Shown: piece by piece, positions 27,071 to 31,821 of the stretch
How the letters are laid out: the number at the start of each line of letters is the position of its first letter
Position numbering within the stretch: position 1 is the first letter of the stretch
Origin: Escherichia coli
GTDB lineage: Bacteria; Pseudomonadota; Gammaproteobacteria; Enterobacterales; Enterobacteriaceae
Length of the DNA stretch: 64,000 nt
Direction: 5' to 3' (one strand)
Assembly: GCF_003334405.1 (NCBI RefSeq)
Contig: NZ_QOWM01000003.1
Translations under genes and position numbers: made by a program
Notes under the pieces: generated by a model
The model's database searches: none
The model's input: the letters and a program-made list of their open reading frames with translations, nothing else
Told to the model about the DNA's origin: nothing

Positions 27071-27240
27071 TCCACAACGTAATGTTTTTTAACTATCTGA
27101 TTAATTGGGGATAATCATTCCTGACAGTGAGTCCCCAATACCTTGATATATTCTGAATTTTTAATGAAACGGCGTGTTGCGATATCTCCGTCAGGGGAAT
27201 TGATGCACCATAGCGCAAACCGAATTATCAAGGATTGATA

Positions 27241-27846
27241 ATGACGCTCTACCAGATAAAACCGCTCTTTCAGTCGCTGTTAAGGCCGACGATGTTTTGG
27301 CTTTATAAGCACCACGTTACAGCGAATCACATCACTCTTGCTGCACTGGCGCTTTCTCTTCTTACCGGATTGCTGTTGATGTTGGCGGCACAACCCATCC
27401 TCTTTTTGCTATTGCCCATCGTGCTTTTTATCCGTATGGCGCTCAATGCGCTGGATGGCATGTTGGCGCGTGAGTGCAACCAGCAAACACGTCTGGGGGC
27501 GATTTTGAATGAGACTGGCGATGTTATTTCCGAAATTGCGCTCTATTTACCATTTTTATTTTTACCGGAAAGTAACGCATCACTCGTGATACTCATGTTA
27601 TTTTGCACCATATTGACCGAGTTTTGCGGTTTACTCGCGCAGACGATTAACGGTGTTCGCAGTTATGCCGGTCCATTTGGCAAAAGCGATCGCGCGTTAA
27701 TATTTGGTCTGTGGGGTCTGGCCGTTGCCATTTATCCACAGTGGATGCAGTGGAATAATCTTTTATGGAGCATTGCTTCAATTCTGCTTCTCTGGACTGC
27801 GATTAATCGTTGTCGGAGTGTGCTTCTTATGAGCGCTGAAATATAA
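27241..27846 (+). CDS. ynbA: CDP-alcohol phosphatidyltransferase-family inner-membrane protein (PgsA-like)
   Basis: 201 aa from ATG 27241; motif NALDGMLARECNQQTRLGAILNETGD resembles PgsA [26 protein letters not shown] but with Asn at two Asp positions; multiple TM helices. Confidence 0.85.
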   Translation: MTLYQIKPLFQSLLRPTMFWLYKHHVTANHITLAALALSLLTGLLLMLAAQPILFLLLPIVLFIRMALNALDGMLARECNQQTRLGAILNETGDVISEIALYLPFLFLPESNASLVILMLFCTILTEFCGLLAQTINGVRSYAGPFGKSDRALIFGLWGLAVAIYPQWMQWNNLLWSIASILLLWTAINRCRSVLLMSAEI

Positions 27847-28742
27847 TGCTGGAAAAATCTCTGGCAACACTTTTCGCGTTGTTAATTTTAGCAACGCTGA
27901 TAAACCGTTTTCTGCTATGGCGGTTACCGGAGAGAAAAGGGGGTGAGGTTACATTACGTATTCGTACCTGGTGGGGCATCGTCATTTGTTTTTCAATGGT
28001 GATTTCAGGTCCACGCTGGATGACGTTGACGTTTTTTGCGCTGATAAGTTTTCTGGCATTGAAAGAATATTGTACGCTTATATCTGTACATTTTCCGCGT
28101 TGGTTATATTGGGGTATTCCTCTTAACTATTTGCTTATCGGTTTTAATTGCTTTGAGCTGTTTCTGTTATTTATACCTTTGGCTGGGTTTCTGATATTAG
28201 CCACCGGGCAAGTTTTAGTGGGTGACCCCTCTGGTTTTCTGCATACCGTGAGCGCCATTTTTTGGGGCTGGATAATGACCGTTTTCGCCTTGAGTCATGC
28301 CGCCTGGTTATTAATGTTGCCAACCACAAATATCCAGGGCGGGGCGTTACTGGTGTTATTTCTTTTGGCATTAACCGAGTCAAACGATATTGCACAGTAT
28401 TTATGGGGAAAATCCTGCGGCAGAAGAAAAGTGGTCCCTAAAGTCAGCCCGGGAAAAACATTGGAAGGTCTGATGGGCGGCGTCATCACCATCATGATTG
28501 CGTCACTGATTATCGGACCGTTACTGACACCGCTAAATACATTACAGGCATTATTAGCGGGTTTGTTAATTGGTATTAGTGGTTTTTGCGGCGATGTCGT
28601 GATGTCAGCCATCAAACGAGATATTGGTGTTAAAGATAGCGGAAAACTATTGCCAGGACATGGCGGACTCCTTGACAGGATTGACTCATTAATTTTCACC
28701 GCTCCGGTATTTTTTTATTTTATACGCTACTGCTGTTACTGA
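27846..28742 (+). CDS. ynbB: CdsA-like phosphatidate cytidylyltransferase paralogue
   Basis: 298 aa; exact CdsA C-terminal signature SAIKRDIGVKDSGKLLPGHGGLLDRIDS; start overlaps ynbA stop by 1 nt. Confidence 0.85.
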   Translation: MLEKSLATLFALLILATLINRFLLWRLPERKGGEVTLRIRTWWGIVICFSMVISGPRWMTLTFFALISFLALKEYCTLISVHFPRWLYWGIPLNYLLIGFNCFELFLLFIPLAGFLILATGQVLVGDPSGFLHTVSAIFWGWIMTVFALSHAAWLLMLPTTNIQGGALLVLFLLALTESNDIAQYLWGKSCGRRKVVPKVSPGKTLEGLMGGVITIMIASLIIGPLLTPLNTLQALLAGLLIGISGFCGDVVMSAIKRDIGVKDSGKLLPGHGGLLDRIDSLIFTAPVFFYFIRYCCY

Positions 28743-28757
28743 AGGAAAATAGAGAAA

Positions 28758-31821
<3,064 letters not shown>

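Follow-up and report, generated by a model that had tools for sequence, protein, structure and literature searches.

YnbA of Escherichia coli belongs to a branch of the CDP-alcohol phosphotransferases with asparagine at two of the four metal-binding aspartate positions and a probably altered active site

The ynbA locus

The window analysed here is a stretch of 64,000 nucleotides from Escherichia coli, in which ynbA is followed by ynbB, ynbC and ynbD (Table 1). The gene is labelled ynbA by RefSeq in K-12-type genomes that are 100% identical across the region. Activation of its promoter by BglJ-RcsB has been reported (PMC3950696), and a simple sigma-70 scan of the intergenic region gave no strong match. 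YnbA matches the superfamily profile PF01066 over residues 27-175 (E 1.2e-9); to our knowledge, PgsA is the only other PF01066 protein in E. coli. In the AF2 model (pLDDT 89), seven helices are arranged as in the six-transmembrane (TM) fold, with a predicted six-TM core and an N-terminal amphipathic helix that superimpose on solved CDP-alcohol phosphotransferases (CDP-APs). When the model was compared with PIPS, AF2299 and IPCT-DIPPS by Foldseek, a probability of 1.00 and TM-scores of 0.73-0.77 were obtained.

Table 1. Genes, codons and conserved elements at the ynbA locus (positions in the window)
Feature	Positions	Strand	Description	Basis
ydbD-ynbA intergenic region	27071-27240	+	holds the BglJ-RcsB-activated ynbA promoter	placed from PMC3950696
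ynbA CDS	27241-27846	+	201 aa; CDP-alcohol phosphatidyltransferase-family membrane protein	ORF and translation, RefSeq, Pfam
R65	27433-27435	+	clade-specific invariant Arg, one helical turn before N69	110/110
Variant signature motif	27445-27522	+	N69-x2-D72-G-x2-A-R77-x8-G86-x3-N90-E91-x2-D94	alignments and conservation
N69 codon	27445-27447	+	AAT	
D72 codon	27454-27456	+	GAT	
N90 codon	27508-27510	+	AAT	
E91 codon	27511-27513	+	D3+1	
D94 codon	27520-27522	+	GAT	
E127	27619-27621	+	clade-specific invariant Glu in TM4	109/110
R140 and G144-P-x-G-K148-S-D150-R151-A152 loop	27658-27696	+	conserved element	at least 94% conserved
R190	27808-27810	+	aligns with R195 of Mtb PgsA1 ('tivnRv' vs 'tcvqRl')	108/110
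ynbB	27846-28742	+	CdsA (CDP-diacylglycerol synthase) paralogue; start overlaps ynbA stop (ATAATG)	
ynbC	28758-30515	+	fusion of alpha/beta hydrolase (Hydrolase_4) and SAM methyltransferase (Methyltransf_20)	Pfam
ynbD	30505-31821	+	membrane PAP2-type domain and C-terminal dual-specificity phosphatase domain	Pfam, RefSeq coordinates

The variant motif and its register

In all domains of life, the CDP-alcohol phosphotransferases are responsible for most phospholipid head groups, and their four-aspartate, two-metal motif is treated as both defining and essential. The complete signature, D1xxD2GxxAR(x8)GxxxD3xxxD4, is not present in YnbA. The corresponding stretch reads N69-A-L-D72-G-M-L-A-R77-ECNQQTRL-G86-A-I-L-N90-E91-T-G-D94, with Asn at D1 (N69) and D3 (N90), and with D2, D4 and the Gly, Ala, Arg and Gly residues of the signature kept. 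A first-pass annotation of the locus had claimed that the first and third Asp of the motif are Asn, and that YnbA aligns residue for residue with PgsA, including an xNQxTRxG core; both claims are borne out by the translation and the alignments. E. coli PgsA (taken from a K-12 genome, L090:27543-28091, minus strand) aligns with YnbA residues 69-103 without a gap in the motif (17/36 identical, E 2e-7), the NQ-TR-G loop is common to the two, and significant alignment is limited to the motif region. PgsA has all four Asp (D46-W-F-D49 ... D68-P-V-A-D72) and a Lys after D4, whereas YnbA does not.

The register was found to be the same in BLASTP against E. coli PgsA, in phmmer and profile hmmsearch comparisons with five solved enzymes, and in Pfam, with the motif gap-free throughout, and a misalignment artefact was thus rejected. 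In HMMER alignments with the PIP synthases of M. tuberculosis and M. kansasii and with CHPT1, N69, D72, N90 and D94 fall on D1, D2, D3 and D4. An all-Asp motif elsewhere in the protein was looked for and is impossible, since YnbA contains just three Asp residues (72, 94 and 150).

The role that the annotation had given to the motif Asp residues, coordination of the catalytic cations, agrees with solved structures (PMC6506517, PMC8633023, PMC10182977). Solved bacterial CDP-APs were described with one or two Mg2+ bound; in xlCHPT1, it is precisely D1 and D3 that bridge both Mg2+, and Ala substitutions reduced activity to below 20% (PMC10182977). As these bridging carboxylates are fixed as Asn in the YnbA branch, the canonical carboxylate-bridged two-metal centre would be unable to form there. 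In MjPSS, the phosphatidylserine synthase of M. jannaschii, every Asp substitution lowers activity; D62N, the same chemical change as N90 at D3, abolished it and extra Mg2+ gave no rescue, and D41S lies at the position of N69 (PMC8633023). Each of the MjPSS mutants has one engineered change in an otherwise canonical enzyme, whereas in YnbA both changes are natural and come with conserved accompanying residues. Because the same D3-to-Asn change inactivates MjPSS, and because both Asn stand at Mg2+-bridging positions, some probability has to be given to a non-catalytic YnbA, a pseudoenzyme that would bind CDP-diacylglycerol or a related lipid and serve YnbB or the enzymes encoded with it as partner, gate or regulator. 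We consider this unlikely for reasons that emerge from the conservation and the gene neighbourhood.

Conservation across the clade

Both Asn positions are conserved among YnbA orthologues. Among 120 close homologues, 114 have the N-D-N-D state, as do, in a HMMER search, 126 of the 129 motif-matching 50%-identity representatives among the matches listed (the best 150 of 1532, down to about E 1e-30). A strain-specific mutation or a sequencing error was rejected on the grounds that close homologues and nearly all distant representatives share the state. In a full-length alignment of 110 clade representatives with a median pairwise identity of 41%, D72 and D94 are present in all 110 and N69, N90 and E91 in 109 each. 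The departures from the Asn state are isolated cases: D1 is D in P0054 and P0268 and C in P0242, while P0225 carries S-V instead of N-E. A genome scan found both Asn in 80/80 species loci, a count biased for N69, not for N90, because one of the two peptide patterns used contains N69; the HMMER search is free of this bias. The clade is present in at least 597 species genomes from many phyla. At the Arg of the 'AR' pair, 15/110 members have K and 10/110 a non-basic residue, and this lack of strictness would suit a pseudoenzyme. The residue after D4, V95 in E. coli, is V, I, L, M, Q or A across the clade and never K or R.

An Asp codon lies one A-to-G change away from each of the two Asn codons, yet Asn has been kept, and these residues are under strong purifying selection. 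Averaged over 28 species, identity to the E. coli protein is 55% for YnbA, 48% for YnbB, 62% for YnbC and 45% for YnbD; YnbA is no less constrained than its operon partners. Hence, relaxed selection or a decaying family was rejected at the level of the clade, and a constraint equal to or above that of YnbB argues against a pseudoenzyme. In E. coli itself ynbA is dispensable, the signs of this being its absence from about 18% of complete genomes and the loss from the species of the acyltransferase that accompanies ynbA elsewhere.

Relationship to known enzymes

The best sequence and fold matches of YnbA are PIP synthases (M. tuberculosis PgsA1, PDB 6h59, and the enzymes of M. kansasii and R. 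salmoninarum) together with archaetidylinositol-phosphate synthase. A clade profile matched PIP synthases over residues 9-197 (E 2.4e-16), and the best NCBIfam match is NF040950. Common to PIP synthases and the YnbA clade are the six-TM core, the N-terminal interfacial helix, the residues of the CDP pocket, D2, D4 and the anion-site residues, including the Arg residues of the sulfate-1 site; the comparison also lists D98 (aligned with D97). Compared with Mtb PgsA1, the clade differs in having Asn at D1 and D3, an invariant Glu in place of both A90 and Q129, a hydrophobic residue in place of R94, and an extra invariant Arg four residues before D1. In Mtb PgsA1, A90 (D3+1) lines the acceptor pocket, and R94, directly after D4, is critical for inositol-phosphate binding.

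The ranking of these matches, with archaetidylinositol-phosphate and PIP synthases first and PgsA next, would be expected if YnbA were a redundant or backup PGP, PIP or PS synthase in which the Asn residues merely tune metal affinity. The 'NQxTRxG' loop shared with PgsA fits such a role, as does the co-encoded phosphatase YnbD, which recalls the two-step PGP-to-PG and PIP-to-PI pathways. This role is quite unlikely, however, since every NCBIfam equivalog score is far under its cut-off: 71.1 bits against 180 for the AIPS model NF040950, 44.2 against 170 for the PIPS model NF045883, and 31.7 against 109.1 (TIGR00560) and 21.1 against 304 (NF008090) for PgsA. It is further disfavoured by the missing basic residue after D4 and by the loss of PG and cardiolipin in pgsA-null E. 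coli. We know of no inositol-phosphate synthase in E. coli, and no gene for one was seen in the YnbA clusters examined. YnbD was reported not to complement PGP or C55-PP phosphatase mutants (PMC7413402), and the former result also speaks against a backup PGP pathway.

The eukaryotic choline/ethanolamine phosphotransferases of the CHPT1/CEPT1 type (xlCHPT1, human CEPT1), with the extended motif D1xxD2GxxAR...GExxD3HxxD4, show that a subfamily can have a catalytic residue of its own at D3+1, where YnbA has its invariant Glu; in xlCHPT1 the residue is His133, which was proposed to be catalytic (PMC10182977). The likeness of E91 to this His is positional only. The position of the partner Glu in CHPT1/CEPT1 (G2+1, position 87) is variable in the YnbA clade and mostly Ala. 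Unlike YnbA, CHPT1 has all four Asp, two Mg2+, CDP-choline as the donor, diacylglycerol as the acceptor and ten TM helices.

Residues around the metal site and in the substrate pockets

Three charged residues distinguish the clade. The position of R65 is V or a gap in Mtb PIPS, His in AF2299, Tyr in CHPT1 and Ala in E. coli PgsA; that of E91 is occupied by A, G, S, H or P in canonical enzymes. E127 aligns with Q129 of Mtb PgsA1, which lies three positions ahead of the sulfate-binding S132 (PMC6506517). From the alignments and the periodicity of the helices, R65, E91 and E127 are predicted to surround the metal site.

N29, T32, G73, A76 and G86 align with D31, T34, G72, A75 and G85 of Mtb PgsA1, which form part of its cytidine pocket (PMC6506517), and each is conserved at 97% or above; judged by these matches, the CDP-binding residues are retained in the clade. 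The counterparts of K148, R151 and R190 in Mtb PgsA1 are R152, R155 and R195, and all three positions are at least 97% conserved. R152 and R155 line the acceptor/anion pocket and R195 is a ligand of sulfate site 1 (PMC6506517), so a PIP-synthase-like anion site is, on the alignment, retained in YnbA.

A pseudoenzyme would normally be expected to have lost its catalytic base, with an active site conserved loosely or in patches. In YnbA, by contrast, D72 and D94 are without exception and new invariant charged residues stand around the site, which argues against a non-catalytic protein.

The gene module

YnbA homologues recur with YnbB, a PlsC-like acyltransferase, YnbC and YnbD, and this gene context points to lipid metabolism. 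Among 57 species loci, a YnbB-like gene lies within 6 kb of the YnbA homologue in 47, and the acyltransferase is present in 45, YnbC in 39 and YnbD in 36. The Pfam matches of YnbD are DSPc (E 2.7e-27) and, at about 1e-4, PAP2_3 and PAP2. Natural fusions join YnbA to a PlsC-like domain and to a YnbC-like domain (P0185).

YnbB makes CDP-DAG in vitro, and its overproduction without YnbA raises MPIase (PMC6362211, PMC7018664). This independence of YnbB, the translational coupling of ynbA and ynbB and their adjacency in most genomes would be consistent with YnbA as an accessory of YnbB. Against this, the fusions are with acyltransferase or hydrolase domains and not with YnbB, and 7 of the 57 loci have YnbA together with YnbC and YnbD and no YnbB nearby, which argues that YnbA is more than an accessory.

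The link of YnbB to MPIase also bears on the identity of the acceptor. YnbA might move the phosphatidyl group to the phosphate oxygen of a sugar-1-phosphate, giving a diacylglycerol-pyrophosphate glycolipid such as GlcNAc-PP-DAG, the first MPIase intermediate; the less anionic site would fit the extra negative charge of the acceptor. The coupled downstream YnbB was reported to be dedicated to MPIase and not to bulk phospholipid, although the step that moves phosphatidyl from CDP-DAG onto GlcNAc-1-P has until now been ascribed to CdsA and YnbB themselves (PMC6362211, PMC7018664). The loss of two carboxylates, the gain of one Arg near the diphosphate site and the retention of the anion-binding residues R151, R190 and K148 all accord with a sugar-phosphate acceptor. 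Nevertheless, we hold it to be very unlikely: CdsA or YnbB overproduced alone raises MPIase (PMC6362211), and MPIase is essential, yet ynbA is missing from many E. coli genomes. Moreover, E91 and E127 in or near the acceptor pocket, with no basic residue after D4, disfavour a dianionic acceptor next to the base, and for YnbC, YnbD and the PlsC-like partner no connection to a glycan chain is apparent.

Literature searches for YnbA, ynbABCD, ynbC/ynbD, PF12147 and the cluster combination turned up no work on the function of YnbA or of the module, no published enzyme assay of YnbA and no paper that describes this form of the motif or the gene set. Nothing on point came from a search for Asn-variant CDP-APs, and the Lipocone paper refers to the family just in passing.

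A probably remodelled active site

As two metal-binding Asp residues are always Asn in the YnbA branch, an altered active site is probable. The first-pass annotation had left the choice between altered chemistry and a non-catalytic protein; altered chemistry is favoured by the conserved Asn residues, D2, D4 and CDP-binding residues, the new charged residues, a conservation on a par with that of the operon partners and the fusions to lipid enzymes, and the non-catalytic option is the less likely one. On balance, we lean towards YnbA being an active CDP-diacylglycerol phosphatidyltransferase of a distinct and ancient bacterial clade in which the two-metal site has been remodelled, probably for the use of one metal. 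What is observed is the motif with its conservation and the invariant residues that go with it, the fold and the gene neighbourhood, and it is from these that we infer catalytic competence. Several observations stand against a working enzyme, namely the inactivity of MjPSS D62N, the non-basic residue at the 'AR' Arg in some members, the lack of a basic residue after D4, and the dispensability of ynbA in E. coli, where the module is without its acyltransferase.

The scheme that we infer covers how many metals are bound, what R65, E91 and E127 do and what kind of acceptor is used. YnbA would bind CDP-diacylglycerol, either made by the co-encoded YnbB or drawn from the pool of the cell, and pass the phosphatidyl group to a polar acceptor, which probably carries an anionic group. 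One Mg2+ would sit on the diphosphate, with D72 and the carbonyl oxygens of the two Asn (N69, N90) as its ligands, and R65 would bring positive charge close to the phosphates. At D3+1, the site of the proposed catalytic His of the eukaryotic choline phosphotransferases, E91 may act together with D94 (D4), the proposed base, and the two could deprotonate or position the acceptor or hold a weaker second metal. The lipid would then be processed by YnbD as a phosphatase or phosphotransferase, by the hydrolase-methyltransferase YnbC and by the PlsC-like acyltransferase.

Significance

A more far-reaching possibility, which at present we would call a long shot, is that the N-x-x-D-G...N-E-x-x-D clade forms a new mechanistic class of CDP-diacylglycerol transferases, one-metal or Arg-assisted, that makes an undescribed bacterial membrane lipid together with YnbB, the PlsC-like protein, YnbC and YnbD. 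The head group of the product may be pyrophosphate-linked or unusual in some other way, and the reaction may possibly be the missing dedicated step to the MPIase anchor GlcNAc-PP-DAG.

The motif is specific, so that YnbA-type genes can be recognised in annotation and separated from those of PgsA, PIPS and Pss. The clade also marks a conserved five-gene lipid module, and for one of its members, YnbB, a connection with the essential glycolipid MPIase is already on record. The occurrence of Asn at both bridging positions in so many species genomes, E. coli K-12 included, suggests a second active-site solution within the family, and the YnbA clade is a natural experiment on the role of the bridging carboxylates.

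The ynbA locus and its motif

The window is K-12-type E. coli chromosomal DNA in which the 5 kb around ynbA are 100% identical to strains C600 and ER1709, and the RefSeq gene order at the locus is ydbD, ynbA, ynbB, ynbC, ynbD and azoR. Translation of ynbA gives the motif R65-M-A-L-N69-A-L-D72-G-M-L-A-R77-E-C-N-Q-Q-T-R-L-G86-A-I-L-N90-E91-T-G-D94-V-I-S-E98, its N69-D94 part exactly as described in the first-pass annotation. YnbA contains only three Asp residues (72, 94 and 150), and therefore no complete four-Asp motif lies elsewhere in the protein. The stop codon of ynbA and the start codon of ynbB overlap (ATAATG) and ynbC and ynbD overlap by 11 bases, both in keeping with translational coupling along the operon.

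Features of the ynbA locus and their positions in the window
Feature	Position	Strand	Basis
ynbA CDS, 201 residues	27241-27846	+	ORF translation
N69 codon AAT	27445-27447	+	translation
N90 codon AAT	27508-27510	+	translation
Codon 98 GAA	27532-27534		
ynbA stop/ynbB start overlap	27844-27848		
ynbB-ynbC spacing	28742-28758		
ynbC/ynbD overlap	30505-30515		
YnbD	30505-31821		

Relation to characterised enzymes

E. coli PgsA, taken from a K-12 genome (L090:27543-28091, minus strand), has the motif D46-W-F-D49[18 protein letters not shown]68-P-V-A-D72. It aligned with YnbA residues 69-103 without a gap in the motif (BLASTP, 17/36 identical, E 2e-7), which bears out the residue-for-residue correspondence proposed earlier. 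The register was identical in HMMER alignments to the PIP synthases of M. tuberculosis and M. kansasii and to the choline phosphotransferase CHPT1, and again when a profile of the YnbA clade was compared with the PDB (M. tuberculosis PIP synthase, Mtb PgsA1, residues 9-197, E 2.4e-16). In this register, N69, D72, N90 and D94 take the places of the four motif Asp residues, D1, D2, D3 and D4. YnbA matches Pfam PF01066 (E 1.2e-9), and its AlphaFold2 model (pLDDT 89, pTM 0.82) gives TM-scores of 0.73-0.77 against PIP synthases, AF2299 and IPCT-DIPPS. The CDP-pocket residues N29, T32, G73, A76 and G86 are kept and align with D31, T34, G72, A75 and G85 of Mtb PgsA1. The profile match, the fold and the CDP pocket make YnbA a clear homologue of the CDP-alcohol phosphotransferase superfamily; it fails the four-Asp signature that defines the family, and scores under the cut-off of every characterised subfamily model.

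Conservation of the Asn residues and other clade-specific positions

N-D-N-D at D1-D4 was found in 114 of the 120 close homologues compared (69% identity or higher), the remainder being fragments or singletons. An exhaustive HMMER search over 1.84 billion 50%-identity representatives gave 1532 relatives, 155 of them at E ≤1e-30; among the best 150 of the 1532, N-D-N-D was present in 126 and Glu after the second Asn in 128 of the 129 strict-pattern matches, and most full-length sequences outside the pattern depart from it at the 'AR' arginine alone, with N..DG and N-E..D intact. In an alignment of 110 full-length clade representatives (median pairwise identity 41%, range 28-59%), N69, N90 and E91 are each present in 109 and D72 and D94 in all 110. 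The Asn positions are thus conserved among orthologues. Codons for Asn and Asp are one transition apart, and since Asn is nearly invariant all the same, the alignment shows Asp to be selected against at positions 69 and 90.

D98 is likewise kept across the clade, beside D72 and D94. Residue 98 corresponds to D97 in Mtb PgsA1 and is Asp in 109/110 representatives and in all other close homologues checked, other E. coli clusters included; the Glu of K-12-type YnbA is a conservative, possibly lineage-specific change at this near-invariant site.

Three further residues are specific to the clade. R65 (110/110) lies one helical turn ahead of N69, where canonical enzymes have Val or a gap (Mtb), His (AF2299), Tyr (CHPT1) or Ala (PgsA). 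E91, an invariant residue at D3+1, replaces Ala, Gly, Ser, His or Pro. E127, also invariant, is in TM4 and aligns with Q129, which precedes the sulfate ligand S132 by three residues. The conserved basic set comprises R140, the loop G144-P-x-G-K148-S-D150-R151-A152, and R190; in the alignment, K148, R151 and R190 are the counterparts of the Mtb PgsA1 residues R152, R155 and R195, which bind a sulfate thought to mark the acceptor phosphate (PMC6506517). Directly after D4, Mtb PgsA1 has R94, at a site said to hold K or R in every case; the R94K mutant is severely impaired. No clade member among the 110 has a basic residue there. Counted against Mtb PgsA1, E91 and E127 would balance the two negative charges lost with D1 and D3, and R65 the positive charge lost with R94, leaving no net change.

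That YnbA is a backup PgsA, PIPS or Pss is improbable given this missing basic residue and NCBIfam scores far under the cut-offs; the partner protein YnbD, to which no function is assigned, moreover did not complement loss of PGP phosphatases or C55-PP phosphatases (PMC7413402).

At the 'AR' arginine, 85 of the 110 have R and 15 have K. In the other 10, roughly 9% of the clade (P0138, P0162, P0168, P0202, P0204, P0227, P0237, P0249, P0263 and P0270), I, N, T or V takes the place of the Arg in the otherwise universal DGxxAR with the Asn, Glu and Asp positions retained, which may be a second layer of active-site change.

Role of the substituted residues

In the Mtb PgsA1 site, D1, D2, D3 and the CDP-DAG phosphates are the ligands of Mg-1, and D3 and D4 (the presumed base) those of Mg-2. 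In the choline phosphotransferase xlCHPT1 both Mg2+ are bridged by D1 and by D3, and Asp-to-Ala at any of the four positions leaves <20% activity; both structures agree with the earlier statement that the Asp residues of the family coordinate the catalytic cations. The xlCHPT1 authors remark that bacterial structures hold one or two Mg2+; they proposed that His133 (D3+1) with Glu129 deprotonates the acceptor, and extended the motif accordingly. In the M. jannaschii phosphatidylserine synthase (MjPSS) all Asp-to-Ser and Asp-to-Asn mutants were impaired; extra Mg2+ partly rescued D41S (D1) and did not rescue D62N, the same change as N90 of YnbA. Because D1 and D3 bridge Mg2+ in canonical enzymes, YnbA has replaced precisely the two bridging carboxylates, a change that is inactivating in a canonical background.

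A reading of YnbA as a pseudoenzyme or a partner of YnbB is supported by D62N in MjPSS and by variation at the 'AR' arginine, yet is unlikely in view of the invariance of D72 and D94, the new invariant charged residues, and the occurrence of YnbA without YnbB or fused to other enzymes.

Distribution and gene neighbourhood

A scan of one genome per species found relatives in at least 597 species, using two search patterns of which one contained N69, so that the scan is biased for N69 and unbiased for N90. They occur in Enterobacterales, Pasteurellaceae, the Pseudomonas syringae group, Rhizobium/Phyllobacterium/Brucella, Variovorax, Neisseria, Chromobacterium, methanotrophs, Campylobacter/Sulfurospirillum, Bacteroidota, Acidobacteria, Desulfobacterales and Calditrichia. 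R65, N69, [RK]77, N90, E91, D94 and D98 were present in 80/80 species-scan loci.

ORFs of 88 loci were searched with phmmer, and partners were counted at the 57 species loci that had 4.5 kb or more on both sides. A YnbB-like CDP-DAG synthase was near YnbA at 47 of these, a PlsC-like acyltransferase at 45, a YnbC-like protein at 39 and a YnbD-like protein at 36; all four occurred at 26, PlsC-like and YnbB only at 16, and YnbC and YnbD only at 7. The gene set recurs in variable order (A-B-PlsC-C-D; A-C-D-PlsC-B; divergent A / C-D-PlsC-B), and natural fusions join YnbA to a PlsC-like domain (P0192, Bryobacterales) and to a YnbC-like hydrolase (P0185). Mean identity over 28 species with all four E. 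coli genes is 55% for YnbA as against 48%, 62% and 45% for YnbB, YnbC and YnbD, and by this comparison YnbA is under no relaxed constraint.

Variant modules were also seen. In Vibrio fluvialis (L004, 7606-7998) the gene that follows the ynbA homologue covers no more than the first 130 residues of a YnbB-like protein and so lacks the catalytic C-terminal half; the cluster (YnbA, truncated YnbB, YnbC, YnbD) adjoins a resolvase gene, which suggests horizontal acquisition. In Thaumasiovibrio subtropicus (L006) and a Desulfobacterales MAG (L084), a patatin-like phospholipase and a short-chain dehydrogenase beside YnbA, YnbC and YnbB-like genes add to the picture of a lipid-remodelling cluster.

In E. 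coli only 15 bp separate ynbB from ynbC, the junction at which Hafnia, Citrobacter, Serratia, Budvicia and Superficieibacter carry the PlsC-like gene (compare L010-L014, L016-L019, L022); the E. coli module appears to have lost this component. In some strains ynbA or ynbB is interrupted by IS1, IS5 or IS3, and in at least one no more than the final 33 bases of ynbA remain. Of 5426 complete E. coli genomes, 4467 have the gene (4251 of them near full length) and 5418 match over the surrounding 5 kb; ynbA is dispensable and repeatedly lost in this species.

The membrane domain of YnbD matches PAP2_3 (PF14378) and PAP2 (PF01569) equally weakly (about 1e-4) and is fused to a clear dual-specificity phosphatase domain. 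Its segment '[10 protein letters not shown]' resembles the H-x3-D-V motif of PAP2_3-type lipid phosphotransferases such as sphingomyelin or IPC synthases, and because of this likeness the domain could be a head-group transferase rather than a hydrolase.

Published work and proposed function

The ynbA gene and its family assignment are already known. The literature searched held no account of YnbA activity, of its motif and the Asn/Asn state found across the clade (with R65, E91 and E127 as further signature residues), or of the conserved five-gene module. BglJ-RcsB activates the ynbA promoter and at some loci acts via relief of H-NS repression (PMC3950696). YnbB synthesises CDP-DAG in vitro and its overproduction raises the glycolipid MPIase; it is non-essential and does not substitute for CdsA in bulk phospholipid synthesis (PMC6362211; PMC7018664). 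YnbB makes it attractive to assign YnbA a phosphate-acceptor chemistry giving GlcNAc-PP-DAG for MPIase, but this is very improbable, as MPIase is essential, yet ynbA is missing from ~18% of E. coli genomes, and the added glutamates disfavour a dianionic acceptor.

We lean towards YnbA being an active phosphatidyltransferase of a distinct clade with a remodelled metal site. CDP-DAG would bind through the intact CDP pocket, and loss of the bridging carboxylates would leave the enzyme unable to hold the canonical bridged Mg2+ pair. D72 and the carbonyl oxygens of N69 and N90 could ligate one Mg2+ on the diphosphate, with R65 supplying positive charge nearby. E91, which sits at the position of the CHPT1 catalytic His and of Mtb A90 lining the acceptor pocket, would with D94 act on the acceptor hydroxyl or hold a weaker second metal. 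Since the site formed by R151, R190 and K148 is retained, the acceptor probably bears an anionic group. The two gained glutamates, E91 and E127, together with the missing basic residue after D4, point to an acceptor that is held in another way than inositol phosphate or glycerol phosphate and that may have a cationic or strongly hydrogen-bonding group as well. The remaining steps of a dedicated lipid pathway would fall to the co-encoded YnbD (phosphatase-type) and YnbC (hydrolase-methyltransferase) and to the acyltransferase.
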